A stretch of DNA of 15,204 nucleotides from a virus (Duplodnaviria > Heunggongvirae > Uroviricota > Caudoviricetes): the IMG/VR virus record IMGVR_UViG_2913177423_000006, positions 1-15,204 of that record; one strand, given 5' to 3'. The notes under the pieces were generated by a model. That model was not told the origin of the DNA. It worked only from the letters and a program-made list of their open reading frames with translations, and did no database searches. Made by a program: the position numbers and the translations under genes. The stretch's first letter is position 1; each line of letters starts with the position of its first letter. Below, one piece after another: positions 1 to 15,204 of this stretch.

Positions 1-555
1 ATGCTTATTGGCTATGTACGCGTATCAACAAATGACCAGAACACCGATCTACAACGTAATGCGTTGAACTGTGTAGGATGTGAACTGATTTTTGAAGACA
101 AGATAAGCGGTACGAAGTCCGAAAGGCCCGGACTGAAAAAACTGCTCAGGACATTATCGGCAGGTGACACACTGGTTGTCTGGAAGCTGGATCGGCTGGG
201 GCGTAGTATGCGGCATCTGGTCATTCTAGTTGAGGAGTTGCGCGAACGTGGCGTTAATTTTCGCAGCCTGACGGATGCTATTGATACCAGCACACCGATG
301 GGGCGTTTTTTCTTTCATGTGATGGGTGCCTTGGCTGAAATGGAACGAGAACTGATTGTTGAACGAACAAAAGCTGGACTGGAAGCTGCTCGCGCGCAGG
401 GACGAATTGGTGGACGTCGTCCCAAACTTACACCAGAACAATGGGCGCAGGCCGGGCGATTAATTGCATCAGGCGTTCCTCGCCAAAAGGTGGCGATCAT
501 CTATGATGTTGGTATATCGACACTGTATAAGAAGTTTCCGGTTGGAGATAAATGA
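1..555 (+). CDS. Serine-recombinase DNA invertase (Gin/Pin/Cin/Hin family), complete 184 aa
   Basis: Starts exactly at window position 1 with MLIGYVRVSTNDQNTDLQ (catalytic Ser in VRVST), conserved WKLDRLGRS and GRFFFHVMGALAEMERE resolvase-domain motifs, and a C-terminal HTH (GGRRPKLT...STLYKK). Near-colinear with Gin/Pin-type invertases as I recall them. Confidence 0.9.
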   Translation: MLIGYVRVSTNDQNTDLQRNALNCVGCELIFEDKISGTKSERPGLKKLLRTLSAGDTLVVWKLDRLGRSMRHLVILVEELRERGVNFRSLTDAIDTSTPMGRFFFHVMGALAEMERELIVERTKAGLEAARAQGRIGGRRPKLTPEQWAQAGRLIASGVPRQKVAIIYDVGISTLYKKFPVGDK

Positions 556-592
556 AACCGTAGCACGTCGTATGCAAGAACGTGCTACGGTT
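556..592. repeat. Perfect 13-bp inverted repeat (aaccgtagcacgt / acgtgctacggtt, 11-nt spacer) directly after the invertase stop codon
   Basis: Read directly: arms at 556-568 and 580-592 are exact reverse complements. No U-tract follows, so it is not a canonical intrinsic terminator; could be an RNA stem-loop or a protein-binding palindrome. Confidence 0.4.
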
Positions 593-718
593 AGCTGGTG
601 AAATGTCGATAGTGCGAGTGTTGAATAATTTCTAGCCGTTATTGATTTTACGTATTTTTGTATGAGATGATTTGCATCTCCTGTCACCGACCATCTATGA
701 CTATACGTCACCATTTCT

Positions 719-763
719 AGGGCTGCTATGTGCCAAGAGCGGTAATTGACAGAGAGCAGCCCT
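719..763. terminator. Possible bidirectional stem-loop between convergent invertase and SIR2 genes
   Basis: Perfect 9-bp stem agggctgct (719-727) / agcagccct (755-763) with a 27-nt loop, lying between the two convergent 3' ends; a T-run follows at 773-786 on the + strand. The loop is large, so assignment is weak. Confidence 0.25.
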
Positions 764-775
764 ATCTCAGTGGCT

Positions 776-3586
776 TTATTTTTTTAGAGATTGCATTCGT
801 TCATTGAATATGTCCAATGTGTCTTGAAATTCAACAAAGCCTCTATCCTTTATAAGGATTTTAATTAAGTTAGGAAAATCACTTTCTACACCAGCTGTAA
901 TGAAATCTAACTCGCCTAATTTATTCGGGATGTTTTCAGAAACAAATTTGTTAATAACCTCAAGAAATTGATCAGGCATGGCACATCCGCTTGCGACTAA
1001 ATGCAAACATTCCATAATATCGCTTACTGTTGCCAGTGGTAGGTTTAAAATATTACTGTTAATAAACTTGTCTATAATGTCAACGACCTCAGGAGAGCCA
1101 ATCCTTTTGATGTTCAATAATAAACTCTTAGTGATGGATCTTTTCCACTTATCATCAAATAATTGTATTTTTGTTAACGCTAATGTTAATAGTTCAGTGT
1201 TTTTGTATTCGTAATTATGATTCTCTGATAATATGTAAATGTTTCGTAAGATATTGGAGTTAATTACATGCTGGTCATAACCATTTAACTCTCCTGTATT
1301 GATTTTTATAAGTATTACATCCAGGATTTTTAACATATCATCATGGGATTTTTGATACAAAAACTCATTCACAGCTAGAAGATTATGTATGTTTTCATAA
1401 ATATTTATGTTATTAGTTCTGCCTTCTAACAAAGGAAGCAAACCATTTATTATTTTCTTTAACTGGTTTGAACTCCACGGAACACATCCTAATATAATCA
1501 ATAAATTATTGGTCCATCGATCTATTGAAGTGGTATGAATAAAATTTTTATTTTTCAACCTAATCAGGTTGCATATGTTTTCGAGAGAGTTGAGTAAATA
1601 TTTCTTAATATGGTGAACTTCTCTTTTGTCAAGTTTGCTGGTGCTGATTATTATTTTGTCTTTTATTACCTTACTTAAAAATTTTTTGAGTTTTTCTGTC
1701 TCGCAGTATTTTATTAACATAAATAGATCGATTCTATTAACATAGAATATCTCTTCGCATAGATAGTGTTCGAGGCTACTAAGAATATTAAATTCGAAAA
1801 ATTGTTTAACCTCTTTATATTCTTCAATTAAAATTTCGTTGCCTAAAATGAAATACACATAAGGGTACAGTTTCGCTCTTGTTTTAAATTCATCATTGGA
1901 AAATGCTATTCCACCACTCTTTCTTATTTGTGAGTACCCTAAATTCTTCTTCGATTCAACGTCAAATCGATAGTAAGCTTTGTATATTTCATTAAATTCA
2001 AGCATCTTTACTAATTCTTGTAGCTCACTTTGCACCCCCCGTGGAAAATCAATTATTTTACTTTTAAACTCAAATGGAGTATGGCTTTCCATTATTGATT
2101 TACAATCTTCATCAATGTCCTTACCGTTACAGTGTAAATCCGACTTCAACATCCTGTAAGCATAATCAAAATTAGACATGTGAATGGTGGCGAGAATATA
2201 GTTTCTCTCATTAAGATGAAGCTTTACTTTCGAAATAAGAATATCGAGAAGTTTGCCATATTCCTTGTTAATAAGAAGTATTTCAGCATTATCCTTTGAA
2301 TAAGCGAAAGAAATCTTATTGTATAGCTCAGACTCTAATTCTGAAGAACTAATCACCTCATACAGTTTCGAGTCATAACTAACTGTATTTATAAATGCCT
2401 TTTCCAAAATAGATGAGAATGTCTTTTTTAAGTGAGTATTTTTACTCAAAATGTCATTAAGGTATATGCTATTTATTTTCCTGCTATACTCGTCATAATC
2501 AGTCGTCAAAATATTATTGTGGGAGGTTAGTTTAACCCCAGACTTATCATAATCAATGGTACTATTAGTTAATTTTTTACTGATCTGCTCAGGGAGCAAT
2601 ACTTTGTATTGTGTTAATGCTTTTAGTTTGCTATCAACATATTTATTTATTTTTTTTGTTACAATACATTGAATATCATTCTTCAATTTATTTTTATCAA
2701 AATCAGACATTCTCAGGTCATCTTCTATTTTTTTTACCTTTGACTCAGTATAGATCAGGGTCCTCTTTATAAACTCATCTTGGTTTTTAACAAGCTTGAA
2801 ATCACTGAAAAATTTTGAATAAAGATCATGATAGCTAATGTCAGTATTCATCGGTGTCAACAAGGATATCCCATGATTTCTTAAGTAAAGAGCCTGGGCT
2901 GCATCATGATTTTTCTGGAGCAAATATTTTCTTGGTGTTGCTTTTGATATAGTTGTAACCCATGAAACAATCTGTTTTAAATCATAATCACTATAAGAGT
3001 ATCCTAAAAACACAACAGTGTTTGTTGAGAATATTCCTTTTATAAAATTTTCGATAAGTGGAAAATTTTGGCTGTACTGTAAGTAATCATCCTCTTTAAA
3101 AACAAAATTATTCTGTCGAAAATCCCCATGCATCTTTATAATTTTCTTGTCCAAATGACTTTGTGCCAGGTCCACGTCAGAACTAACTAAATCATAAGCC
3201 AATCCTATGTCTTGTGCAGTTTTTTCAAGCAAACTATCCCAGTTGGTTGTAATTATATAGTGGGGGTTTAATTCAAATAGCATCTTATGAAAAAGACTTG
3301 GTTTCAAATCTCTAATTATTGATTTGACTTTTTTAACATAAGAGTTTTGTCCGTATTGAAGAAAGTAAAGTTGGGCTATTTTTAAATAATCATTTTCTTC
3401 AGACAATCCTAAGTCGTCTTTTAGCTCATTTATTAACTCCCTCCAGGTTGGTATTTTTATTAATTCCGTTTCGCTGAATTTAGAAAAACCAGCACCAATA
3501 AAAAGAACTAACTTATTATCTTGACTGGCATTCAATATTTCGTTCAAGTCATATTCAGAAAAAGAAAGTGGATTTAAATTTATCAT
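776..3586 (-). CDS. SIR2-domain protein, 936 aa: N-terminal SIR2-type NAD+-hydrolase domain plus ~650-aa helical C-terminal region; candidate single-gene antiphage defence protein (DSR1/DSR2-like)
   Basis: Long uninterrupted ORF. N-terminus carries SIR2-type motifs: glycine-rich LVLFIGAGFS (res 26-35), IITTNWDSLLE (Asn115), IIKMHGDF (His153), VVFLGYSYSDYDL. Asn-His spacing of 38 residues. The gene is visibly far more AT-rich than its neighbours (by eye, roughly 25-30% GC against about 50%). No partner gene (TIR, HerA, Argonaute) nearby. Confidence 0.8.
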   Translation of the reverse strand: MINLNPLSFSEYDLNEILNASQDNKLVLFIGAGFSKFSETELIKIPTWRELINELKDDLGLSEENDYLKIAQLYFLQYGQNSYVKKVKSIIRDLKPSLFHKMLFELNPHYIITTNWDSLLEKTAQDIGLAYDLVSSDVDLAQSHLDKKIIKMHGDFRQNNFVFKEDDYLQYSQNFPLIENFIKGIFSTNTVVFLGYSYSDYDLKQIVSWVTTISKATPRKYLLQKNHDAAQALYLRNHGISLLTPMNTDISYHDLYSKFFSDFKLVKNQDEFIKRTLIYTESKVKKIEDDLRMSDFDKNKLKNDIQCIVTKKINKYVDSKLKALTQYKVLLPEQISKKLTNSTIDYDKSGVKLTSHNNILTTDYDEYSRKINSIYLNDILSKNTHLKKTFSSILEKAFINTVSYDSKLYEVISSSELESELYNKISFAYSKDNAEILLINKEYGKLLDILISKVKLHLNERNYILATIHMSNFDYAYRMLKSDLHCNGKDIDEDCKSIMESHTPFEFKSKIIDFPRGVQSELQELVKMLEFNEIYKAYYRFDVESKKNLGYSQIRKSGGIAFSNDEFKTRAKLYPYVYFILGNEILIEEYKEVKQFFEFNILSSLEHYLCEEIFYVNRIDLFMLIKYCETEKLKKFLSKVIKDKIIISTSKLDKREVHHIKKYLLNSLENICNLIRLKNKNFIHTTSIDRWTNNLLIILGCVPWSSNQLKKIINGLLPLLEGRTNNINIYENIHNLLAVNEFLYQKSHDDMLKILDVILIKINTGELNGYDQHVINSNILRNIYILSENHNYEYKNTELLTLALTKIQLFDDKWKRSITKSLLLNIKRIGSPEVVDIIDKFINSNILNLPLATVSDIMECLHLVASGCAMPDQFLEVINKFVSENIPNKLGELDFITAGVESDFPNLIKILIKDRGFVEFQDTLDIFNERMQSLKK

Positions 3587-4026
3587 TTTATAACTCTATG
3601 CATGTCTTAAAATTCATTGCTTCCATCAATATTAGCATAATTAAGTATTTCAAATCATAACGATGCTTAATTTATCATTATAATCCATTAACTTGTTCCA
3701 AGTACACCGTCTGCTAGTAATTTCTCCATTAACTGACTTATAAAGTGGGGGACTTCCGTCTCTCTCTCATAACAGACATTCACTACAGTTATGGCAGAAA
3801 GGTATGCAAGCCGGGTGTGGGAAAGTATGAAAGAAAAGAAGACTGCTGCGCCGTTTGTCGTCACATTTATCTTCATTGGCTATGCAAGTCGTAATACAAG
3901 GTGGGACAAAACTGAGACACATAAGGCCTCGCAATGGCTTGCAAGGCTTTACATGTTTTGATGTGGCGGGACGTGTGAGCGCAGTGTTGATGGGGTAATG
4001 CTTTGAATTAGAATCGGATTCTTATA

Positions 4027-4072
4027 ATTCGTAATGCGAAGGTCGTAGGTTCGACTCCTATTATCGGCACCA
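4027..4072 (+). tRNA. 3'-terminal fragment (~46 nt) of tRNA-Thr(CGU), thrW-like; att-type junction, not a complete tRNA gene
   Basis: attcgtaatgcgaaggtcgtaggttcgactcctattatcggcacca gives an anticodon loop ttCGTaa, T-arm gtagg-ttcgact-cctat, 3' acceptor strand tatcggc, discriminator a and CCA. The required 5' acceptor strand gccgata and the D-arm are absent upstream, and the 5' half of the anticodon stem does not pair (tataa vs tgcga). Confidence 0.75.
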
Positions 4073-4237
4073 TTTCAACGTCTTTTCCCGTCTATTAAAA
4101 TCCAACAAACCCGCATATACTCTAGCTTTGAGCGCCCCAGATAGTGTTTTAACGTCTATCAATATCTCCTAAAATCCACGTCTTTTGGGGGGATATTCGG
4201 GGGTATATGCTGTGTGGGCTACTGGAGATACCCCCAA

Positions 4238-5428
4238 ATGAAACTAAATGCCCGTCAGGTCGATACGGCCAAACCGAAAGAAAAACCCTATAAACTGGCC
4301 GATGGTGGTGGGCTTTATCTGCTTGTTAATCCCAATGGTTCCCGGTACTGGCGTTTAAAGTACCGGGTAGCCGGAAAAGAAAAGCTGTTGGCGCTGGGGG
4401 TATATCCCGATGTAACCCTGGCTGATGCCAGGGCGAAACGAGATGAGGCCAAAAGGGGTATGGCTGGGGGGATCGACCCGAACGAAGCGAAGCGGGAAGA
4501 AAAATTGAACCGCGAAGCGCAAATCAAAAACACCTTCGAAGAAATCGCCAGAGAGTGGCATACAGAACGGCAGAAGAAATGGTCTGAGGGGTACGCCTCG
4601 GACATTCTGGAAGCATTCAGTAAAGACATATTCCCTTGGATTGGAAAACGCCCCATCACGGAAATAAAGCCCCTTGATTTGCTGAATACGCTTAAACGCA
4701 TCGAGAATAGGGGAGCGACTGAAAAGGCCCGTAAGGTTCGCCAGTGGTGCGGGGAGGTCTGGAAGTATGCGATCGTTACCGCCCGCGCAGAATATAACCC
4801 CGCCCCTGATCTATCTGTGGCTATGGAAGGACACGAAGGGGAGCACTTCCCCCATCTGGAAGCCGAAGAGTTACCCGAATTTTTCCAGACGCTGGCGACG
4901 GCAAAAAGTAACGTTCAGGTTATTTTGGGGCTGCGTCTGCTTATTCTTGTGGGGTTACGTCCGGTTGAATTACGCGCGGCCCCGTGGTCAGAGATTGATT
5001 TTGATAATGCCTTGTGGGAGATCCCCAAAGAGCGAATGAAGAAAAGACGTCCGCACGTTGTCCCGCTTTCTCGCCAGGCTATGGTTATTCTCGGGCAATT
5101 AAAAGAGTTGTCGGGCCGCAATCCTTTCATTTTTCCGGGCCGGAACGACCCGCGAAAGCCAATGAGTGAAGGAGCAATTAATCAGCTAATAAAGCGACTC
5201 GGGTATAAGGGCAAAGCTTGCGGGCATGGTTTCCGACATACCATGAGCACAATTTTGTATGAGAAAGGGTATAACACCGAATGGATCGAAACCCAGCTTG
5301 CACATGTTGATAAAAATACCATCCGTGGCACATATAATCATGCCCGCTATCTGGATGGACGCCGGGAAATGCTTCAATGGTATGCCGACTATATGGAATC
5401 GCTGGCGAGTGGCAGGGTAAAAGATTAG
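4238..5428 (+). CDS. int: Tyrosine integrase, P4/CP4-57 IntA type (396 aa)
   Basis: N-terminus MKLNARQVDTAKPKEKPYKLADGGGLYLLVNPNGSRYWRLKYR is the classic P4-type integrase arm-binding start; C-terminal catalytic region has HGFRHT and a conserved Tyr in RGTYNHARY. GGAGA Shine-Dalgarno 10 nt upstream of the ATG at 4238; the ORF-track start at 4214 is a GTG extension. Sits immediately downstream of the tRNA fragment. Confidence 0.9.
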   Translation: MKLNARQVDTAKPKEKPYKLADGGGLYLLVNPNGSRYWRLKYRVAGKEKLLALGVYPDVTLADARAKRDEAKRGMAGGIDPNEAKREEKLNREAQIKNTFEEIAREWHTERQKKWSEGYASDILEAFSKDIFPWIGKRPITEIKPLDLLNTLKRIENRGATEKARKVRQWCGEVWKYAIVTARAEYNPAPDLSVAMEGHEGEHFPHLEAEELPEFFQTLATAKSNVQVILGLRLLILVGLRPVELRAAPWSEIDFDNALWEIPKERMKKRRPHVVPLSRQAMVILGQLKELSGRNPFIFPGRNDPRKPMSEGAINQLIKRLGYKGKACGHGFRHTMSTILYEKGYNTEWIETQLAHVDKNTIRGTYNHARYLDGRREMLQWYADYMESLASGRVKD

Positions 5429-5998: not shown

Positions 5999-6217
5999 AT
6001 GAGAAATGATGCAATGCAGCTTTTAAACCAAGGAAAAAGATTGATCCGCCTGCCTGAAGTTATGATGCTTACGGGGCGGTGTCGCGCCAGTATTTATAAA
6101 GATATCAATGCAAATGTCTTTCCAAAGCCGATTAAAACCGGCCCGCGTTCTGTCGCATGGGTTGAGGGTGAGATCAGCGACTGGATCGACAACAAAATCA
6201 AAGAGCGCAAAGTGTAA
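5999..6217 (+). CDS. alpA: AlpA/Vis-family phage transcriptional regulator (excision activator-like), ~72 aa
   Basis: RLIRLPEVMMLTGRCRASIYKDINANVFPKPIKTGPRSVAWVEGEISDWI matches the AlpA-family pattern (RLP.V...TG..R.TIY.....FP.P...G.R.V.W...E...W), in the usual position after a P4-type int. Start chosen at the ATG at 5999 (MRNDAMQ...); the ORF-track start at 5978 lacks an SD. Confidence 0.75.
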   Translation: MRNDAMQLLNQGKRLIRLPEVMMLTGRCRASIYKDINANVFPKPIKTGPRSVAWVEGEISDWIDNKIKERKV

Positions 6218-6416
6218 ATCTGATTTTATTCAGAGATGAATATGATTTATTTGAATGCTAAGGATTTTGTGTATTCTTTTTGTTGTAAATACTCGTAGCA
6301 TGGGGAGTTGGCAGTATTTATTCAGTATTAGGTTAAGTGGTTACAAAATACCAGGCAATGCCGGTTTATGCAGTGTTTAATATATTTGTTGCTGGCGAAA
6401 ATTTACGGAAAATTAA

Positions 6417-7289
6417 ATGAACATTACTGATATTATCAGCCATCGCGTATATCGTGATGCGGATCTTGCTGTCATTAATAACACGGCATTTATTCAGCCT
6501 TATGACGGTTGTCACCGTGGTTTGTATGAAATGCGCGTTATTGAACTTTATCGCCTGAATAAAATGATGCACCTTACCCACGAATATAAATCTATTTCCG
6601 GGGAAAGCGTAGGCATTCCGGCGACTAAAGAGGAACTGTTTACACTGGTTAATAAAGGGCATGAACTTTGCCAGTCTGAACGGGAAAAGCTGGCGGCACT
6701 TGAAGCAGAATTGCAGCGTCTGCCAAGCCCGGCTGTAATTCCTGCGCCGCAGACGATTAAAGAAGCACAGCAGGCCCGTAAATCACTAGAAGATGAAAGA
6801 TTCAGACTGCATCACGCAGCAATTAAAAATCAAGTCAAGGCACAGCAGGAAGAGTTATCCATCAGACAAAACATTCTGGCATTGCTCGCGCCGGTTATTG
6901 ATGTGTTGTTGGCCGTGGAAGATGTGGAACTGCTCGATCTGCGCCGTTCCCTGCCTAAGTCATCCCTCGATGCTAAGGCATTCAAAAAGGCGATTTCTGA
7001 AATTGAGTGTGCTGACCTTGCCTGGCAGAAAATGGATAAACTGGAGATTGCCCTTAACAAGGTGGTGAACAACTGCACATATCGCCCGGAAGGAAGCATT
7101 AATCCCCGTTTTGTTAACCCTCTTAATGAAGATAAGCGGGAACGCGCCGAAATATCACGCGATTATTACAGCTCTGAAATGGCCTTTATTCATACGGTGA
7201 TGAGTGCAGATGAATATTTAAATTATATGTTGCCGATCCGTCACCAGCAGCGCGCGCAACGACTCACATTAGAAAGAAATATCAACTAA
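6417..7289 (+). CDS. Hypothetical 290-aa protein with a central coiled-coil-like region; possible scaffold-like partner of the downstream capsid-family gene
   Basis: Clean ORF whose stop lies 10 bp before the next gene, which has an AAGGAAG SD. Middle segment (ELCQSEREKLAALEAELQRL ... QVKAQQEELSIRQNILALL) is heptad-like. No family recognised by eye; functional call is inference from adjacency and size only. Confidence 0.6.
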   Translation: MNITDIISHRVYRDADLAVINNTAFIQPYDGCHRGLYEMRVIELYRLNKMMHLTHEYKSISGESVGIPATKEELFTLVNKGHELCQSEREKLAALEAELQRLPSPAVIPAPQTIKEAQQARKSLEDERFRLHHAAIKNQVKAQQEELSIRQNILALLAPVIDVLLAVEDVELLDLRRSLPKSSLDAKAFKKAISEIECADLAWQKMDKLEIALNKVVNNCTYRPEGSINPRFVNPLNEDKRERAEISRDYYSSEMAFIHTVMSADEYLNYMLPIRHQQRAQRLTLERNIN

Positions 7290-7298
7290 GGAAGAATT

Positions 7299-8306
7299 AT
7301 GTCTTATGTAACACCAGATTATTTAACGCAGTATCACGAAAACCTGATTAAGTCTTTTAATATTAAATATAAAAACGAAGATACGGGGTATTTCACCATA
7401 TCACAGCCGGAAAAAGCATCTCCGGATGCATGGGGATGTTCCACGCTTGATGTTAAAGGCTCGTCCTGGCTGATTGATAATATTTCATTACTGGACATTA
7501 CCGGTGCGGATGGCACGACGATCACCATCGGTGATGGTTCCCTTTATACAGGCCGTGCAAAGGAAGGTCGCTTTCATAAGAAACTAAAAACCAACGGAAC
7601 ACCTTTTTTATTATCAGAAACGGATTCCTGCGCCTCATTGACTTATGAAGAAATGGCGGTAATGGCAAACGCGAAAAATTTCAGTAATGAAATGATCATT
7701 TTTTTCAAGAAGGCCGTGGTGCGGGATATGCTCCGTATTGGATTTAACGGCAAGATGATTGCCGAAAATACCAACCCGGAACAATATAAAAACGGCGAAG
7801 ATATCAATATTGGCTGGCACTCGCTGGCAAAAACATTCAATAACGGTTCACAAATTATTTCTGATGCTTTCGCACTGGGGAAAGGGGGTGATTTTGCCGA
7901 TGTTCACGATCTGGCTGATTGCCTCATCACGTCAAAAATCCCCGAAGGTCAGCGCGAAGATCCGGGCCTTGTGGTGATGGTTGGCGCGCAGCTTGCCGCC
8001 CGCGAACGCCTGAAACTGTTCAACATGGCCGATCAACCACTGACGCTGACGGCGGGGGATATGTTGACAAGCAGTGTCGCCGGTCGTTTTGCCTTTATCC
8101 CGCCGTTTATGCCGGGTAAGCGCCTGGCTGTTACGACGCTGAAAAATTTGCAGATCCTGACGCTGAAACACAGCCAACACTACCGCGCGGAGGATATCCC
8201 GCAACGAGGTGTTTATGAGCATGGCTATTTACGTGAAGAAGGTTACGCGCTGGGGGATGGCTATCTTTACGCGGCCAGCGATGAGAACGCCGTGACGCTG
8301 GTTTAA
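7299..8306 (+). CDS. P2 GpN-like major capsid-family protein homologue (335 aa)
   Basis: Colinear motif matches to my recollection of P2 GpN: RIGFNG vs AGFNG; NIGWHSL vs AVGWLQK; LGKGGDFADVHDLAD vs VGKGGDYASLDALVMD; EDPGLVVMVGAQLAA vs EDPDLVVIVGRQLLA; TTLKNLQI vs ITKLENLSI. AAGGAAG SD 5 nt upstream. Recalled-sequence comparison, not a search, so moderate confidence. Confidence 0.55.
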   Translation: MSYVTPDYLTQYHENLIKSFNIKYKNEDTGYFTISQPEKASPDAWGCSTLDVKGSSWLIDNISLLDITGADGTTITIGDGSLYTGRAKEGRFHKKLKTNGTPFLLSETDSCASLTYEEMAVMANAKNFSNEMIIFFKKAVVRDMLRIGFNGKMIAENTNPEQYKNGEDINIGWHSLAKTFNNGSQIISDAFALGKGGDFADVHDLADCLITSKIPEGQREDPGLVVMVGAQLAARERLKLFNMADQPLTLTAGDMLTSSVAGRFAFIPPFMPGKRLAVTTLKNLQILTLKHSQHYRAEDIPQRGVYEHGYLREEGYALGDGYLYAASDENAVTLV

Positions 8307-8477
8307 AACCTGCTGCAGTACAGCCAGCTTTGACAGTGTTGACCAGATAAAAGAAAACCCCCTCACCGGAACGAACAAGAAACGATGAGAGGGTTTATCA
8401 GGAAGATGATTCTACGCGATGAATTATACCGGGATACAACCGATGCTTACCAGCATAACCACACGACGTAAAAGGGG

Positions 8478-8663
8478 TTATTCCTTTATCGTGTCCAGTT
8501 TCTTACGGCGTTGGCGGCGCTTTATCTCACCCTTTGCCGCAGTTACTAAGAAACCGGCTGTACTTTCTCCAGTTTCCTTTAACTGTTCTATATCCTCCAT
8601 AACCTCATGGGGGATTCTGACGGTGGTCATTTGCGATTTTGCATTCTTCGCACCTGTTGCCAT
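8478..8663 (-). CDS. Ribbon-helix-helix (CopG/Arc-like) DNA-binding protein, 61 aa
   Basis: Minus-strand translation MATGAKNAKSQMTTVRIPHEVMEDIEQLKETGESTAGFLVTAAKGEIKRRQRRKKLDTIKE has the RHH beta-strand/helix pattern (TTVRIP.E....IE.L). GGAGA SD 6 nt upstream of the ATG at 8663. Divergent from the small-gene operon. Confidence 0.5.
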   Translation of the reverse strand: MATGAKNAKSQMTTVRIPHEVMEDIEQLKETGESTAGFLVTAAKGEIKRRQRRKKLDTIKE

Positions 8664-8787
8664 TACTGTTCTCCACTCGAATAGGTGTATTTCAGTATAC
8701 GCAACTAAAAAACAGAAAAAAAGACTTGAAGTGTATTTCACCATACGTGTAGGATTGATTTGCAAGGTGACATACACCTGTAAAGTA

Positions 8788-8820
8788 AAGCCCGGCAGTG
8801 TGGGGACACTAACCGGGCTT
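8788..8820 (+). promoter_or_regulatory. Strong nested hairpin/palindrome in the divergent control region upstream of the small-gene operon
   Basis: Outer stem aagcccgg (8788-8795) / ccgggctt (8813-8820), inner stem agtgt/acact with gggg loop. No U-tract follows, so it is more likely an operator or structured leader than a terminator. Confidence 0.35.
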
Positions 8821-8849
8821 CTGACCAACACGTTAACAGGACTAACGCT

Positions 8850-9053
8850 ATGGCTAAGCCGAAGTGTAACCAAACTCACCCTAAAAATCGCGTATTTCTC
8901 TTTCTTGCGGTATCAAGGGCTGACATGCAGGACAAACCACACCGCGAACAAATCACCGCGTACAGCGAACAGGAAGCCCGTTCCATGCTGGCCGGTCGCT
9001 TTATCCTCTGCTTTGCTGGCTGTCTGCCGGTTCAGGAGGCGCGCCATGTTTAA
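8850..9053 (+). CDS. Possible small leader ORF (67 aa, or 42 aa from ATG at 8925); stop overlaps next gene's start (ATGTTTAA)
   Basis: Open frame whose TAA (9051-9053) overlaps the ATG at 9046. No recognisable domain; C-terminal hydrophobic stretch RFILCFAGCLPV. May be non-coding leader. Confidence 0.3.
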   Translation: MAKPKCNQTHPKNRVFLFLAVSRADMQDKPHREQITAYSEQEARSMLAGRFILCFAGCLPVQEARHV

Positions 9054-9294
9054 CCCACTGGACAACCGTAAAGCGGCGGCGCTTAACCCGTTCCACGATG
9101 ACTGTTACGATCCGCCAGCCTTTATTAAACCGGGTTCAAAAGTAGTGGTTGAAATTGATTCCCGTGAAATGGAAGTCGCTATTCTAGCCGCTTATGACTA
9201 CGGACTGGACGCGCTGAACGACGATGGCCGGGAAGAGCTTAACCGCTTAATTGCTGACCTGAAAGACCAGATAACGGAGGCGCGGTATGCATAA
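9046..9294 (+). CDS. Hypothetical small protein (82 aa), first gene of the translationally coupled operon
   Basis: AGGAGG SD 6 nt upstream of the ATG at 9046. Stop overlaps the next start (ATGCATAA at 9287-9294). The ORF-track start at 8419 is a stop-free upstream extension. Confidence 0.65.
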   Translation: MFNPLDNRKAAALNPFHDDCYDPPAFIKPGSKVVVEIDSREMEVAILAAYDYGLDALNDDGREELNRLIADLKDQITEARYA

Positions 9295-9712
9295 TCTGCT
9301 TAATTCACCGTTGCCAGTGTCTATGGATCTCTTTCAGGCTGGCGAGATGTGCGGGCATTTTGTCGCGCGGTTAACGGATGAAAGTTGTGTTGACGAGACT
9401 GAACGCGTCGCACTTTGCGGACGTCTGGCTTTTGCCCTGCGTTCTCTTTCATCTCTTTGTGATACAGACTATCCATCGCATATCCAGGCGCAATTAACCG
9501 CGACTGCTATTCCTGCTCCCTGCGTACCTGATGAGTGGATCGACGCGACGATCATGACGGGCTATTGCACCGCCTTAAATGATGCGCTGCTTAGTCGCTC
9601 CCTTCGTATGGACGTTGAAACACAATTACGCTGGCTTTTGCATGACATGATTAATTTACTTGTCAGATATCTGAAACAGCCTTGTATTAAGGCGGGAGTA
9701 GATCATGTCTGA
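9287..9712 (+). CDS. Hypothetical Cys-rich protein (141 aa)
   Basis: Start overlaps the previous stop and its own stop overlaps the next start (ATGTCTGA at 9705-9712). No family recognised. Confidence 0.6.
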   Translation: MHNLLNSPLPVSMDLFQAGEMCGHFVARLTDESCVDETERVALCGRLAFALRSLSSLCDTDYPSHIQAQLTATAIPAPCVPDEWIDATIMTGYCTALNDALLSRSLRMDVETQLRWLLHDMINLLVRYLKQPCIKAGVDHV

Positions 9713-10112
9713 AATTATGCTCACACCGTTTCACGTTGACCGCCATTTTTACGATCTGGTTTACGGTGCTTCATTTTTTGCGGATGCATTACCTGCAATG
9801 AATGATATCAAGCAGCAGCGGCTTTATTGTCGATTATTGCAATTAAATCTGGTTGTTTTATTTGAAAAACGGTCGCGGGATATTCCCCCAATTCAGTCGA
9901 GTAAAATAAAAATCGCTGATGAGGTTATATTTCTTAATGTCGATAATATTTATCATGCGCTTTCCCTGACTGCCGGGCTGATAAGTCAGGATATCAGTAA
10001 GGGGATTGAAAAAGAACTGGCTGAATATATCAGGGATATTATTAGTATTATTTTTAATGAAATGCGAATGCAGATGGTTGATTATGATCCCTATGAAATG
10101 TGGGACGACTAA
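9705..10112 (+). CDS. Hypothetical protein (135 aa), acidic C-terminus
   Basis: Translationally coupled to the upstream gene; no family recognised. Confidence 0.6.
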   Translation: MSEIMLTPFHVDRHFYDLVYGASFFADALPAMNDIKQQRLYCRLLQLNLVVLFEKRSRDIPPIQSSKIKIADEVIFLNVDNIYHALSLTAGLISQDISKGIEKELAEYIRDIISIIFNEMRMQMVDYDPYEMWDD

Positions 10113-10199
10113 AACAATAATCGATTTATAAGAACTGAAAAACATTTAATTATAACCGTATTTTAACGGGGAGTAATTACGCCCCTGTAAGGAAAATAT

Positions 10200-10469
10200 A
10201 TGTCTGATTTGAATACCATTGCTGTTAATAGTGCTGAAAAATATCTTAGCCTTGAGTGCTTCCATAAACTCAACCGCGCAAGGAATGTTTCATTCCAGAT
10301 GCATTTACAGATCCGTCAGTGTGAGATAAACGGCCTGCCACTTTTATGGATTCCAGATATTTTCAGCTATATCAGCGAAGACATATCCGCCGTTCTGGAA
10401 GAAGCCAAAGTACTTGGCCTTTGCGATAAGTTCACAGGCGAAGCCCGGATCGGTCAGGTCAGTCTTTAA
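10200..10469 (+). CDS. Hypothetical protein (89 aa) upstream of the primase
   Basis: ORF with a GGAAAA region before the ATG; followed by a T-run and GC-rich palindrome gcgccgc-ccgct-gcggcgc (10483-10501) before the primase start. Confidence 0.5.
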   Translation: MSDLNTIAVNSAEKYLSLECFHKLNRARNVSFQMHLQIRQCEINGLPLLWIPDIFSYISEDISAVLEEAKVLGLCDKFTGEARIGQVSL

Positions 10470-10532
10470 TTTTTTGTATTCCGCGCCGCCCGCTGCGGCG
10501 CATTGTCTTACCCATTAATAAAGGTCATACCG

Positions 10533-13265
10533 ATGCAAGGTAAAAAAGTTTCACAGACAGCAGGACGCGCAGCGGGCCAGTGGGAAAATATTCTTGAACA
10601 CCTGGGGATTACTGTTCCTGCGGGTGGTCTTCATGGCCCCTGCCCGATCTGCGGCGGTAAAGATCGTTTTCGCTTTGATAATAAAAAAGGGCGTGGAACC
10701 TGGTTCTGCAACCAGTGCGGCCACGGTGACGGGCTGGATCTGGTCAAACTGGCGCTTTCGCTGGACACCGGGCCAGCCGCTGATCGAGTTGCTGAATTAC
10801 TTCCGGCCCTTCCTCCGCCTGCGGTCATGCAGCCTGCCAGAAAAGAAGCCAGTGACGAAGGTCGCCCACATGACTACTGGCAACGCCTCTTTGCCCGTAC
10901 TCAGCCGGGGGAAAGCCCTTACCTTACGGCGCGGGGGCTGACAGGTTTTGAACTGCCGCTGACCGTTCAGGAGATGAAAACCGCTGGCGGTGTTTTTCCG
11001 GCTGGTTCGCTTTTATTACCGATCACGGACACCGAAGGACGGATGACCGGTGCACAGCTTATCGGCCCGGACAAGGTAAAAGGCTTATGTGCTGGCACCA
11101 GGAAAAAAGGGCGTTTTATCTCTGTCGGGCCGTTCCCGGTGAAAACGCCCGCGCGGATCATTATCTCGGAAGGCTTTGCCACTGCGTTAAGCGCATCCCT
11201 GCTTTCAGAGGGCTGGAGTATTGCGGCGCTGGATAAAGGCAACCTGAAAGACGTTGCGGAGCAAATCCGCCAGAAATGGCCGGACGTGCAGATCGTTATT
11301 GCCGGTGATAATGACTTTTCTGACGGTAAACCCAATCAGGGGAAAGAGTCTGCGATCAAAGCTGCACTGGCCGTTAAGGGATGGATGACCATTCCTCCCG
11401 GACGGATCAAAGTTGACTGGGATGATTACCGCCGTGAATTTGGCCTCCAGCGCGCCCGTGACGCATTCGCGGAAGAACTGCTTAACCCGGCAGACACCGA
11501 AACGCGTTTACCGCATGGTTTCCGCCTGACGAAGGATTATCTTTGGTTTGATCGCCCGCTCAGTGACGGTAGCGAAAGCGGCCAGACTCGCCAGGTGAAG
11601 ATATGTAGCCCGCTCAAAGTGACGGCCATCACCAGCGACGGCGAAGGCGGTAAATTCGGGCGTCTGCTTGAGTGGGAAGACTCCAGCGGATTACGGCATG
11701 AATGGGCGATGCCAATGACAGTGCTTGCCGGAAGCGGTCAGGAGCTGCGGGAGGTTCTGCTTGATAACGGAATGCACTTTATCAGCGTGAACGGCGCGGC
11801 GCGTAGCTATCTGATGGAATACATTTCTAACTGTCGCCCGGTTCGCCGCGTCACCTGCGTTGAAAAAACAGGCTGGTTTAGCGGTGCATATGTTCTCCAG
11901 GATGAGGTGATCGGCAGCGATGCCGGATCGGTGATCCTTCAGTCTGCTATGTCGTCTAAAAATGACTTCCGGGTGAGCGGAACGGCGGCGGAATGGGCGC
12001 AACACGTCGGGCGCTATTGCGCCGGTAATTCCCGCCTGGTGTTCTGCGTCAGTCTGGCGCTGGCCGCGCCGTTGCTGAATCTTATCGGCGTGGGCGGCGG
12101 CGGTTATCACCTTAAGGGCGAATCCACGGACGGCAAGACAACCACAATGAAGGTGGCGGCGTCAGTCTGCGGCGGGCCTGATTTCTGGAAAACGTGGCGG
12201 GCAACCGGAAACGCGCTGGAAGGTATTGCGCTACGCCGTAATGATGCCGCCCTGATGCTGGATGAAATCAGCGAAGTTGACGGCAGAGAGGCCAGCCGGA
12301 TCGCCTATATGCTGGGGAACGGGCAGGGCAAAGCAAGGGGGCGCGTTGATGGCAGCGTCCGCGATCCGGTGACCTGGACATTGCTTTACCTGTCCACCGG
12401 GGAAATCTCTATTGCGGAACATGCCGCCGAAGCCGGAGAAAAGCGAACCGGCGCGGGTGTCGGTGTGCGTATGGTGCAAATACTCAGCGATACCGGAAAA
12501 CATGGCGCTTTCGAAAATCTCCACGGCATGGAAGGCGGTAAAGCGTTTGCGGAATACCTTGAACAGTCCTGTAAACAGTATCACGGTGCGCCGTTCCGCG
12601 AATGGTTGCGCTGGCTGGCGGCAAACCTGACGGAAACTGCGAACCGGGCGCGGGCAATGAAAAAAGAGTATGAACGGACATTATTACCCGAAGATTCCGG
12701 CAAGCAGGTCGGGCGCATTGTGGATCGCTTTGCGCTGTTAGCCGTTGCGGGGGAACTGGCAAGCGAAGCGGGGATCACCGGCTGGCTACCCGGTGAAGCG
12801 TATAACGCTGCAAGAAGCTGTCTGGCGGCATGGCTTAACGATCGCGGACATGCGGCCAACCAGGAAGAAGCCGACGCGCTGGAGAAGGTGCGGCGCTTTA
12901 TTACGGCGAATCAGTACACACGCTTTGCTGACTGGTATGACGAGAAAAACCGCCCGTCAAATATGGTTGGTTTTCGCCGGGTGGAGAAAGGCGGGAACGG
13001 TATCGGCATGAGCAAGAAGGAGAACAGCGGCGATACTGTTAAAGACGGGGACGCCACTAAAGAGCCGGAAACCACATTTTATATCCTGCCCAGCGGATGG
13101 AAGGAGATTTGCGGGACGTCGGACAGCGTTAAAACGGCGAGACTATGCGACGAGGCTGGATGGCTTGTAAAGGATGAAGATCGCCAGCGCCTACAACGTA
13201 CAGTAAGACTACCGGAAATTGGCTTAAAGAAAGTGTATGTGTTCAGCGGCGAAGTGATCGGATAA
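10533..13265 (+). CDS. P4 alpha-type DNA primase/helicase (zinc-binding domain, Toprim primase, P-loop NTPase)
   Basis: Zinc ribbon CPICGGKDRFRFDNKKGRGTWFCNQCGHGDGLD; Toprim motifs IIISEGFATA and VIAGDNDF; Walker A GESTDGKTT and Walker B LMLDEI. Start set at ATG 10533 (MQGKK...); the ORF-track start at 10503 is a TTG. Confidence 0.9.
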   Translation: MQGKKVSQTAGRAAGQWENILEHLGITVPAGGLHGPCPICGGKDRFRFDNKKGRGTWFCNQCGHGDGLDLVKLALSLDTGPAADRVAELLPALPPPAVMQPARKEASDEGRPHDYWQRLFARTQPGESPYLTARGLTGFELPLTVQEMKTAGGVFPAGSLLLPITDTEGRMTGAQLIGPDKVKGLCAGTRKKGRFISVGPFPVKTPARIIISEGFATALSASLLSEGWSIAALDKGNLKDVAEQIRQKWPDVQIVIAGDNDFSDGKPNQGKESAIKAALAVKGWMTIPPGRIKVDWDDYRREFGLQRARDAFAEELLNPADTETRLPHGFRLTKDYLWFDRPLSDGSESGQTRQVKICSPLKVTAITSDGEGGKFGRLLEWEDSSGLRHEWAMPMTVLAGSGQELREVLLDNGMHFISVNGAARSYLMEYISNCRPVRRVTCVEKTGWFSGAYVLQDEVIGSDAGSVILQSAMSSKNDFRVSGTAAEWAQHVGRYCAGNSRLVFCVSLALAAPLLNLIGVGGGGYHLKGESTDGKTTTMKVAASVCGGPDFWKTWRATGNALEGIALRRNDAALMLDEISEVDGREASRIAYMLGNGQGKARGRVDGSVRDPVTWTLLYLSTGEISIAEHAAEAGEKRTGAGVGVRMVQILSDTGKHGAFENLHGMEGGKAFAEYLEQSCKQYHGAPFREWLRWLAANLTETANRARAMKKEYERTLLPEDSGKQVGRIVDRFALLAVAGELASEAGITGWLPGEAYNAARSCLAAWLNDRGHAANQEEADALEKVRRFITANQYTRFADWYDEKNRPSNMVGFRRVEKGGNGIGMSKKENSGDTVKDGDATKEPETTFYILPSGWKEICGTSDSVKTARLCDEAGWLVKDEDRQRLQRTVRLPEIGLKKVYVFSGEVIG

Positions 13266-13362
13266 GACCTGCTGACACCGCTATAACTAACGGTGTTGGC
13301 CAGCTTCCGGTCCTGGAAACATAGCCAGCCAGGAAGAAGTGATCGCACGTATCATATTTTTT

Positions 13363-13575
13363 AGTGGGAACAGTGGGAACATAGGGAACAGACTTGATTT
13401 ATAAAAGTTTTATTTGTTCCCAATTACTGTTCCCATATGGTAACAGGTGGTAATGTATTTTAAATCATATGGTTATGTTGATATGCAAAGCGTTGTTCCC
13501 AGTTGTAAAAGAGAGATGGGAACAGGAAAAAGGTATAAATATCAACACTGTTACCATTGTTCCCACTGTTTCCAC
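13363..13575. repeat. Iteron-like array: about 10 copies of octamer TGGGAACA / TGTTCCCA in both orientations; candidate ori/crr-type primase-binding region or integrase arm-type sites
   Basis: Read directly: direct copies at 13366, 13375, 13384 (9-bp period); inverted copies tgttccca at 13415, 13428, 13494; tgggaaca at 13517; tgttacca / tgttccca / tgtttcca at 13549, 13558, 13567 (9-bp period). Confidence 0.7.
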
Positions 13576-13649
13576 CATTTTTGACAATAACAATGTTTAA
13601 TTTCGGGGAAAATGCTTTTCCCTGGCTGGCTAACATCAAAGGTGAAGAA

Positions 13650-14198
13650 ATGAGCATCAAGAAACGTCCTGATGGAAAATGGCTGGTAGATATCCGCCCC
13701 AATGGGCGGAACGGGAAACGCGTTAGGCGTGTTTTTATGCTTAAGCGTGAGGCTGAAAGTTTCATAAGATATACAAAGTGGCGAGCAATGCAGTCTGAAC
13801 CCACAAGAACAATCAAACCAGCATTTGAATATTATACCCTTTATGAAGCGTGTGAAATCTGGTGGCGTTTAGTGGGTCATACAAGAATTAACGCAGAAAC
13901 TGAAAAGCGTCAGCTTGAAAAGACTATCAGGCAAATGGGGAATCCTTATGTTATGGAACTTAAATATACACAATTAATTCAATTTGTAATGTTACGATTA
14001 TATTCATGCAATAAATATGTTTCTATTCGGCGTGATCTTTACAGGCTGTCAGGTATGTTTCGTGATCTGATAAAAATAGGTGAATATAATTCTAACCCCA
14101 TGAAAGGGGTTGGTTCATTAATGAACGAATGTAACCGACGTTTAGCCATACACGTTAGCAATCCTTGCTGGGTTCAATGGTGGAGAGGGGTAAAATAA
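13650..14198 (+). pseudogene. Tyrosine-integrase N-terminal fragment (arm-binding plus core-binding region, 182 aa), lacking the catalytic domain; probable integrase remnant or stand-alone DNA-binding protein
   Basis: MSIKKRPDGKWLVDIRPNGRNGKRVRRVFMLKREAESFIRYTKW is the typical P2-type integrase arm-binding N-terminus. The ORF stops after ~180 aa with no R..HxxR..Y catalytic region. AGGTG SD before the ATG at 13650. Confidence 0.5.
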
Positions 14199-14217
14199 AT
14201 GGGAGTAATAAGTGATA

Positions 14218-14475
14218 TCAGTTTTGAAGCAATTCTTTTATCATTGTTTTTTGTTCCGGCGTCATCATGTCAATCATTGTTTTTACTGCTTTCTCCCCAG
14301 TCAGCGCGCTGGGGCTTAGCGTATGGGAGAACGTCATATTCATAACGAAGGTATGCCCACATTCAACATTATTACAGGCACAATACATATCAGACAGGTG
14401 TGGATGCTTGCGTACTGTCTTTTTTGTTGTTGAATTACTTCCACACTCAGGACAAACAATTTTATGGCTGCGCAT
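14218..14475 (-). CDS. Ogr/Delta-family zinc-finger transcriptional activator (85 aa)
   Basis: MRSHKIVCPECGSNS...YCACNNVECGHTF gives Cys spacing C-x2-C-x20-C-x-C-x4-C with the NV.C motif of P2 Ogr / P4 Delta. GGTGA SD 5 nt upstream of the ATG at 14475; the ORF-track start at 14529 is probably an upstream extension. Confidence 0.7.
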   Translation of the reverse strand: MRSHKIVCPECGSNSTTKKTVRKHPHLSDMYCACNNVECGHTFVMNMTFSHTLSPSALTGEKAVKTMIDMMTPEQKTMIKELLQN

Positions 14476-14895
14476 AATAATCACCACTCGTAAAAGGCGC
14501 ATTATTATACCACTATTTGCATTAAACAAAAAAAGAAGTTGATATAAATTATCAATAATATCATCGTATTATGTTATTCCATTCTTTCCTTGCTTTTATC
14601 TTAGTGTCACGTAATTTGATTTTTTTTTATTTTAATTTTCATGTGGTTACGTTATTTTTGTTAAAGATTGAATTTTACGAAGACTGAAATTACTGAAATC
14701 CTTTGCAATTGATTGCATTTTTTTCAGTCTCAAATTTCATGTAAAACCCCGTTTAACGCCTGTTCTGGCGGTTCTTTCCTGCAATTTTCCAAACTGAAAA
14801 AATTCTCACTACGTAAACACCGTGGGCGTGCGGGTGAGCGCGGTTTTGGTCCCGCTGGCGTTTGCGTCGTAACAAGTCAGAAACATACAACCACA

Positions 14896-14914
14896 TGTAC
14901 AACTAGCTGTACAT
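14896..14914 (+). promoter_or_regulatory. Putative yefM-type operator: two TGTACA hexamers 13 bp apart, ~45 bp upstream of the antitoxin start
   Basis: catGTACAActagcTGTACAtatg read directly. The E. coli yefM-yoeB operator is known to be built from TGTACA-core palindromes. Confidence 0.5.
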
Positions 14915-14958
14915 ATGCAATACTTACGACGTAATAACTTGGCGGACGGAAAAACACT

Positions 14959-15204
14959 ATGCAACACGTAAACTATACCGATGCTCGACAGCATTTAGCT
15001 GACCTGATGCAGCAGGCTAATGATGATCGTGCCCCAATCCTGGTTACGCGTAAGGGTGCTAAAAGCGTAGTAATGATCGATGCGGAAGAGTTCGCATCGA
15101 TTCAGGAAACGTTACACCTGTTCAGTAACCCGGCGAACGCCGCACACATTGAAGCCAGCCTTGCATCGCTCGAACGCGGCGATTATGAGGAACTGGACAT
15201 TTAA
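14959..15204 (+). CDS. yefM: YefM/Phd-family type II antitoxin (81 aa)
   Basis: MQHVNYTDARQHLADLMQQANDDRAPILVTRKGAKSVVMIDAEEFASIQETLHLFSNPANAAHIEASL aligns with E. coli YefM as I recall it. Stop codon is the last triplet of the window, so the cognate toxin would lie beyond the window end. Confidence 0.85.
   Translation: MQHVNYTDARQHLADLMQQANDDRAPILVTRKGAKSVVMIDAEEFASIQETLHLFSNPANAAHIEASLASLERGDYEELDI

Follow-up and report, generated by a model that had tools for sequence, protein, structure and literature searches.

The stretch of DNA analysed here, called the window throughout, is 15,204 nt long and is 100% identical to positions 82–15285 of RHJQ01000037.1 (assembly GCA_004211995.1). Its left part carries the end of a prophage and its right part a P4-like satellite, with a partial copy of the tRNA gene thrW between them. 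The features are as follows.

1–555, plus strand: pin-type DNA invertase (Pfam Resolvase and HTH_7), the pinE gene that closes the tail-fibre module in UMNK88
776–3586, minus strand: cargo protein of 936 aa with an N-terminal SIR2 domain (Pfam SIR2_2, 3.9e-24)
3762–4026, no strand assigned: P arm of the prophage att site, conserved phage sequence directly left of the core
4027–4072, plus strand: 3′ segment of thrW and core of the prophage attR (46/46 to thrW; 106 phage records)
4054–4075, plus strand: putative attL core of the satellite, imperfectly repeated at its right end, with the crossover provisionally placed in CACCATTT (4068–4075)
4073–4237, plus strand: probable P′ arm of the satellite and region upstream of its int gene, the same sequence following intact thrW elsewhere
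4238–5428, plus strand: P4-type tyrosine integrase, 396 aa (Pfam Arm-DNA-bind_3, Phage_int_M and Phage_integrase)
5999–15204, plus strand: body of the satellite, cut by the window end (Pfam, PHROG, and BLASTP against P4 proteins), including the features below
6417–7289: ORF of 290 aa that adjoins the capsid gene and forms a conserved pair with it
7299–8306: P2-family major capsid protein (Pfam, 1.3e-54)
8478–8663, minus strand: YlcI/YnfO-like gene of 61 aa (61–63 aa across relatives)
8850–9053: Icd-like/cI-like gene of 67 aa, as called in relatives
9046–9294: gene of 82 aa, as called in relatives
10533–13265: primase with zinc-ribbon, Toprim and DUF927 domains
13650–14198: truncated second integrase-like gene, 182 aa, with an Int_N domain only

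The sequence at 4027–4072, ATTCGTAATGCGAAGGTCGTAGGTTCGACTCCTATTATCGGCACCA, was compared with thrW (76 nt) from three complete E. coli genomes; in Z1323HEC0462, the genome used for the alignment, the gene is annotated as tRNA-Thr and lies downstream of proA. All 46 nucleotides match the 3′ end of thrW, which encodes tRNA-Thr(CGU), and the copy spans tRNA positions 31–76, including the CGT anticodon and running through the CCA end. The 30 nt to the left of the copy (3997–4026) have no likeness to the 5′ half of thrW, and in the alignment the 5′ acceptor strand, the D arm and the 5′ strand of the anticodon stem are all missing left of 4027. ARAGORN called no tRNA gene in the whole window, while reporting tRNA-Thr(cgt) in related loci that have the complete gene, and Rfam gave no tRNA match at E≤1. 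The region 3990–4075 did not fold better than shuffled sequences (z = 0.08), and no cloverleaf was formed. A 25-nt sub-pattern of the copy occurs once in the window and found no match in 200 shuffles, which excludes a chance match. A functional tRNA-Thr(CGU) gene was therefore rejected, given the restriction to positions 31–76 together with the ARAGORN, Rfam and folding results. A preliminary description of this DNA had placed a thrW-type 3′ half at the same coordinates and had read it as an att repeat rather than a gene. The alignment to thrW confirms the coordinates and the description of the segment, and the att-repeat reading holds, since the 5′ half is absent; a complete tRNA was sought with ARAGORN and by folding, and none was found.

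A full-length, 100% identical copy of the 46 nucleotides is present in 106 phage records, and the segment is annotated as the attP core in P22, ES18, HK542 and phage L. Window positions 1–4075 are 100% identical to E. coli UMNK88, in which the matching stretch is the right end of a prophage of approximately 39 kb with an HK97-type head, a Mu-like contractile tail, an invertible tail-fibre segment, pinE and a SIR2-family gene. The left end of the UMNK88 prophage is marked by proA, intact thrW and then a tyrosine integrase gene on the opposite strand; to the right of the 46-nt copy lies chromosome (a LysR fragment, then paoD). The prophage Int is 98–99.7% identical to the Int proteins of SfIV, SfII, SfI and SfV (99.2% for SfI) and approximately 90% identical to those of P22-like Salmonella phages. 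The SfIV prophage has a 46-bp att sequence at both ends in thrW, identical to the att of SfI and SfV (PMC3851460).

The DNA directly left of the core is also of phage origin. Positions 3762–4026 are approximately 99% common to the prophages of PapRG-04-4 and JNEC-KY203, whose cargo differs, and the isolated phage phi458 matches 3752–4074 at 89.6%. This P arm sequence is absent in the genomes where the satellite follows intact thrW. Both prophage attR features, the 46-bp core and the phage DNA to its left, are thus present in the window; the cognate int gene and intact thrW at the other prophage end are found in UMNK88 and PapRG-04-4, and the source contig itself starts 81 nt before the window. 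The 46-nt copy is the attR of an SfV-like prophage with a P22/SfV-type att core, and the pin invertase is among the last genes of that prophage. It follows that the length of the repeat and its left edge at 4027 are set by the P22-type attP core, not by the satellite. The preliminary description spoke of an upstream island that carries the invertase and SIR2 genes and ends in this repeat; that outline is kept, and the island can now be specified as a complete-type SfV-like prophage with a P22-type core.

To the right of the copy, the integrase gene starts at ATG 4238, not at GTG 4214 as in the mechanical ORF list. In BLASTP comparisons the satellite proteins resembled those of P4: the integrase is 43% identical to P4 Int (E = 1.8e-114), the AlpA protein 39% identical to P4 orf88 (E = 2e-15), the derepression protein 45% identical to P4 epsilon (E = 2e-19), the N-terminus of the primase 37% identical to P4 alpha (E = 3.6e-48), and the Ogr protein 30% identical to P4 delta (E = 3.6e-4). 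Pfam identified AlpA, Derepression, Zn_Ribbon_Prim, Toprim and DUF927 (the last three in the primase) and Ogr_Delta. The genes are arranged in the order AlpA, the 290-aa ORF, the P2-family major capsid gene, the YlcI/YnfO-like gene (minus strand), the Icd-like gene, the epsilon-like derepression gene, the primase gene, the truncated second integrase gene, Ogr/Delta (minus strand) and Phd. This order is conserved in more than 15 loci. The satellite is approximately 11.6 kb long and ends in a Phd/YoeB pair, of which the window holds only the start of Phd.

No homologue of Sid or Psu was found by BLASTP against P4 proteins at E≤1 or by Pfam. In place of sid and psu the satellite has the P2-family major capsid gene and the 290-aa ORF, a pair kept in more than 15 related loci. 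The nearest phage relative of the capsid protein is ESSI-2-like and only approximately 41% identical; the 290-aa ORF had no match in Pfam, PHROG, PADLOC or the phage genomes. We found no description of P4-like satellites with a capsid gene of their own in the literature searched, an absence that is not proof of novelty. The neighbouring prophage was considered as a helper for the satellite and judged unlikely: the functions encoded by the satellite are of P2 type (capsid gene, Ogr/Delta), unlike the HK97-type head and Mu-like tail of the prophage. Two open reading frames in the satellite were set aside as mechanical. One, of 291 aa (8419–9294), gave no match in the look-ups, and relatives have shorter genes there, namely the 61-aa minus-strand gene and the 67-aa and 82-aa genes listed above. 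The other, of 213 aa (13557–14198), likewise had no match, and relatives carry the 182-aa Int_N fragment instead. In loci L007, L008 and L012 the second integrase is 321 aa long and includes the catalytic domain.

From position 4073 the sequence is identical or nearly so to the DNA that follows intact thrW in satellite-only genomes. This region contains candidate arm-type Int sites: TGGGGGGAT at 4186, CGGGGGTAT at 4198 and an inverted ATACCCCCA at 4228–4236. The GGGGG-containing repeats at 4186 and 4198 are spaced 12 nt apart, and the inverted copy abuts the integrase start. The opposite arm, close to the right end of the satellite, contains a further pair with the same 12-nt spacing. ACGTCT repeats occur at 4078, 4152 and 4178, with a CGTCT variant at 4089. 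In the annotation of P4, the 12-nt ‘attP arm sequence repeats’ are TTGGGGGCATAA and variants of it, laid out as two tandem repeats per arm with one inverted copy over the int start, and the layout in the window matches. The stretch 4073–4237 is therefore best regarded as a putative P′ arm, judged from these repeats.

The right end of the satellite was less readily identified. Exact and fuzzy searches with 25-, 20- and 16-mers, allowing up to five substitutions, gave no second copy of the tRNA 3′ end in the window or in the first loci. A repeat was revealed by aligning the chromosomal flank of UMNK88, which has the prophage only, to the flank of JNEC-KY203 beyond the satellite; the simple searches had missed it because it contains an indel. 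Twelve related loci, the source contig included, were then compared. Only an imperfect stretch of approximately 19 nt (4054–4072) is common to the satellite's left junction and its right end. The right ends have GCATGTTTA, followed by ACTC(T/C)TATTATCG-CACCA and then TTT, or are more decayed, compared with ACTCCTATTATCGGCACCA in thrW. In relatives the right copy is 18 nt long with one mismatch and one missing G, and loci of the Z1323HEC0462 type retain ACTCTTATTATCGCACCATTT. The differences (T for C, one missing G) all lie left of CACCATTT, and the left junction is a perfect tRNA sequence. These two observations together suggest that the satellite strand exchange takes place within CACCATTT, at approximately 4068–4075. 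The satellite attP would then match the tRNA only imperfectly left of CACCATTT, and satellite-specific DNA would begin at approximately 4073–4076. The attR variants (the missing G, and deletions of 3 nt or more) could instead reflect decay after integration, not inheritance from attP, in which case the crossover would be less securely placed.

Of the right repeat, the source contig retains only a 12-nt vestige, ACTCTTATTATC, at window-equivalent positions 15661–15672, approximately 460 nt past the window end. Beyond this vestige come a diverged P4-type P′ arm and a truncated P4-type integrase gene (together with the vestige, 15129–15600 of locus L023, window-equivalent 15661–16130), which belong to a third, older element. 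As the crossover segment is gone from the right junction, the satellite in the source strain can probably no longer excise precisely. The second repeat predicted downstream in the preliminary description thus exists, in degenerate form (18 nt in relatives, 12 nt in the source contig). The left boundary that this description gave the satellite, at about 4027–4072, needs correction: 4027 is the edge of the prophage core, and the satellite crossover is more likely to lie nearer 4068–4075.

Complete genomes show the thrW site in three states, with the prophage alone (UMNK88), with the satellite alone (Z1323HEC0462), and with both in tandem. The satellite directly follows intact thrW in Z1323HEC0462 and in eight further genomes, reached via the integrase and a second satellite protein, so that the expected position of a P4-type integrase element, after complete thrW, is borne out in nine distinct genomes. 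The tandem state is complete in the finished chromosome of PapRG-04-4, which contains, in order, proA, intact thrW (4650044–4650119), an SfV-type int gene, a prophage of approximately 40 kb ending in pinE and cargo, the P arm, the 46-nt copy and the satellite. Tandem occupation of thrW, as the preliminary description had proposed, and the intact tRNA-Thr gene that it expected upstream are both found in this chromosome. The same junction is carried by JNEC-KY203 and three draft genomes; with the source of the window, the 46-nt junction is present in five further genomes that have no upstream tRNA in view. In one draft with the junction a lambdoid morphogenesis module replaces the Mu-like tail. 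A 241-nt probe across the junction was covered to at least 80% in 8 of 5,426 complete E. coli genomes, and a junction-specific pattern had no match in a contig collection with one genome per species. A reverse array was seen in Z1323HEC0462 and several other genomes, where the satellite right repeat is followed by TTTAAATCAATAAGTTACACATCA and then by a phage integrase remnant. TTTAAATCAATAAGTTACACATCA matches exactly the SfV-type P′ arm found after thrW in UMNK88; in these arrays the satellite had entered the intact thrW of a site already occupied by a phage.

These results, taken together, indicate that the partial tRNA is not a gene but a scar common to two integrated elements, at once the attR of the phage and the attL of the satellite, a reading to which we assign a probability of about 0.88. 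An SfV-like temperate phage with a P22-type integrase, and with the last 46 nt of thrW in its attP, would have recombined with the chromosomal thrW. Integration would have restored a complete thrW at attL, the left end of the prophage, which lies outside the window, with the 46-nt copy remaining at attR. The DNA to the right of the copy would be the left end of the P4-like satellite, not chromosome, and the satellite would use the extreme 3′ end of the same thrW gene as its attachment site. Because both elements use the 3′ end of thrW, the same bases would serve as prophage attR and satellite attL. The sequence identities and the three configurations of the site are direct observations; the prophage integrase gene and intact thrW of the source strain are presumed from the other genomes. 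Excision of the prophage by Int and Xis, through recombination between thrW and the copy, would be expected to bring an intact tRNA gene back beside the satellite, with thrW followed directly by TTTCAACGTC.

Either order of integration yields the same junction sequence. We somewhat favour a resident satellite and later arrival of the phage at intact thrW, on the basis of precedent and of the layering in other genomes. In Shigella flexneri, every lysogen tested, comprising a constructed one and all 24 converted serotype X isolates, had SfI inserted at the attL of the resident SfX, where thrW is intact (PMC3306764). In loci L002 and L015–L019 the satellite right end is followed by the SfV-type P′ arm, with the satellite at the intact thrW of a resident prophage, of which most of these loci retain only a remnant; these arrays are therefore as expected if a newcomer inserts at the intact gene. 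UMNK88 has the identical prophage end next to a different chromosomal flank and no satellite, and 100% identity across unrelated backgrounds suggests that the phage was transferred recently.

In the opposite order the SfV-like prophage would have come first, and the satellite would then have entered the 46-nt attR copy as a secondary attB. The 19-nt satellite core lies entirely within the copy, which would have had the native downstream flank beside it, so that the satellite Int may not distinguish the copy from thrW; the final sequence would be the same. We regard this order as possible but the less probable one, as the satellite in L002 and L015–L019 chose intact thrW at a phage-occupied site, the precedent from thrW phages places the newcomer at attL, and the identity to UMNK88 in an unrelated background points to recent phage transfer. 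An integrase element inserted at the repeat, as the preliminary description put it, is thus correct as to the tandem arrangement; the order that it implies is one of two that the sequence allows, and the reverse agrees better with the SfI precedent (PMC3306764) and with the layering in other genomes. The more general proposal that partial tRNA copies left by prophages act as secondary landing pads, the satellite here having entered attR and not thrW, seems to us rather unlikely. If it were true, prophage scars would multiply integration sites and couple satellites to phages that are not their helpers.

Two further explanations were considered. A truncated tRNA pseudogene, produced by a deletion or IS event and not by site-specific recombination, would account for the missing 5′ half, and IS fragments lie near the junction in PapRG-04-4, but the break coincides exactly with the left edge of the 46-nt P22-type attP core, the sequence to its left is a conserved phage P arm also present in the isolated phage phi458, and related finished genomes have intact thrW at the other prophage end, which makes this origin very improbable. 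An assembly chimera, joining a prophage contig to a satellite contig via the shared tRNA repeat, might be suspected in a draft whose contig starts in the invertible tail-fibre region, the more so as some short-read contigs break in the repeat (L012 and L013 both begin 27 nt ahead of CCA); since the P arm, the 46 nt and the satellite P′ arm are found together in PapRG-04-4, JNEC-KY203 and six more finished genomes, an artefact of assembly is excluded as the origin of the junction, and we give this explanation scarcely any weight.

The shared scar is thus real but ordinary, and belongs to a kind already known from K-12 ptwF and from tandem SfI-SfX lysogens; no new mechanism is implied, as it is textbook knowledge that elements can occupy thrW in tandem and that partial tRNA copies mark their ends. 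Compared with other P22/SfV-type attR sites in thrW, the site in the window has the identical 46-nt core, an associated Int nearly identical to those of SfI, SfII, SfIV and SfV, and variable cargo beside attR. It differs in that the DNA right of the core is another mobile element and not chromosome, and in that the cargo is a SIR2-domain gene and not O-antigen modification genes. The SfI-SfX lysogens at Shigella flexneri thrW (PMC3306764) likewise have two elements in series with an att copy between them, the later arrival adjoining the intact tRNA gene. In that case two phages share one type of att core, whereas the second element here, a P4-like satellite, has a different integrase, and its core is imperfect and much shorter. 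P4 itself, at leuX, also has its integrase gene beside the tRNA 3′ end, a core ending in TCGGCACCA, and paired 12-nt GGGGG-containing repeats in each arm with an inverted copy overlapping the int start; its Int, orf88 (AlpA), epsilon, alpha and delta all have homologues in the satellite. The satellite in the window differs in targeting thrW and not leuX, in its imperfect right-end repeat, and in having a P2-family capsid gene and no Sid or Psu homologue. Tandem elements have been noted in surveys of P4-like satellites (PMC8628076, PMC10085698).

E. coli K-12 (NC_000913.3) has a second, 49-nt copy of the thrW 3′ end at 297206–297254 (37207–37255 of locus L025), at the far end of CP4-6. This partial copy has been named ptwF (PMC2951348), and the name is also used in phage annotations. 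Like the copy in the window, ptwF is a non-functional thrW 3′ copy that bounds an integrated element, in that case the cryptic prophage CP4-6; unlike it, ptwF adjoins chromosome (yagP, paoD) and lies next to intF, and the copy in the window adjoins a second element. According to a 2026 paper (PMC13170351), K-12 ptwF and thrW are transcribed in both the sense and the antisense direction, and the antisense RNA contains a candidate site of TadA-dependent editing. The copy in the window could not form an equivalent hairpin, because it starts at position 31 and does not have the 5′ strand of the anticodon stem.

The value of the junction lies mainly in annotation, as it allows two mobile elements to be delimited at base level. 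The end of the prophage is at 4072, satellite-specific DNA would run from approximately 4073, and the right end of the satellite falls beyond the window, at the vestigial repeat described above. At least three layers occupy thrW in the source strain: the SfV-like prophage, the P4-like satellite and an older P4-type integrase remnant. The boundaries also place the SIR2 gene in a variable cargo slot beside the prophage attR. This slot, between pin and attR, is filled by a SIR2-domain protein in the window and in UMNK88; elsewhere it holds GIY-YIG plus AraC, DUF262, DUF4145, DUF6602 or ‘4-fold beta flower’ genes. Shigella phages have gtr serotype-conversion (O-antigen modification) genes in the same position next to attR (PMC3851460, PMC3306764). 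In PADLOC the SIR2 protein resembled ThsA in the SIR2 domain only, and no complete defence system was recognised around the gene. The slot looks like a possible hotspot for defence or other cargo genes.

Two minor observations concern the DNA on either side of the SIR2 gene. A sub-threshold Rfam match to CssrB at 533–589 (36.7 bits, against a gathering score of 76) covers only the 3′ terminator-like hairpin of the model and a few terminal bases; it lies at the end of the pin gene and is most likely just the pin terminator. Within the prophage P arm, two overlapping terminator-like hairpins are present on the minus strand at 3914–3947, oriented to stop transcription entering from the att side before it reaches the SIR2 gene.
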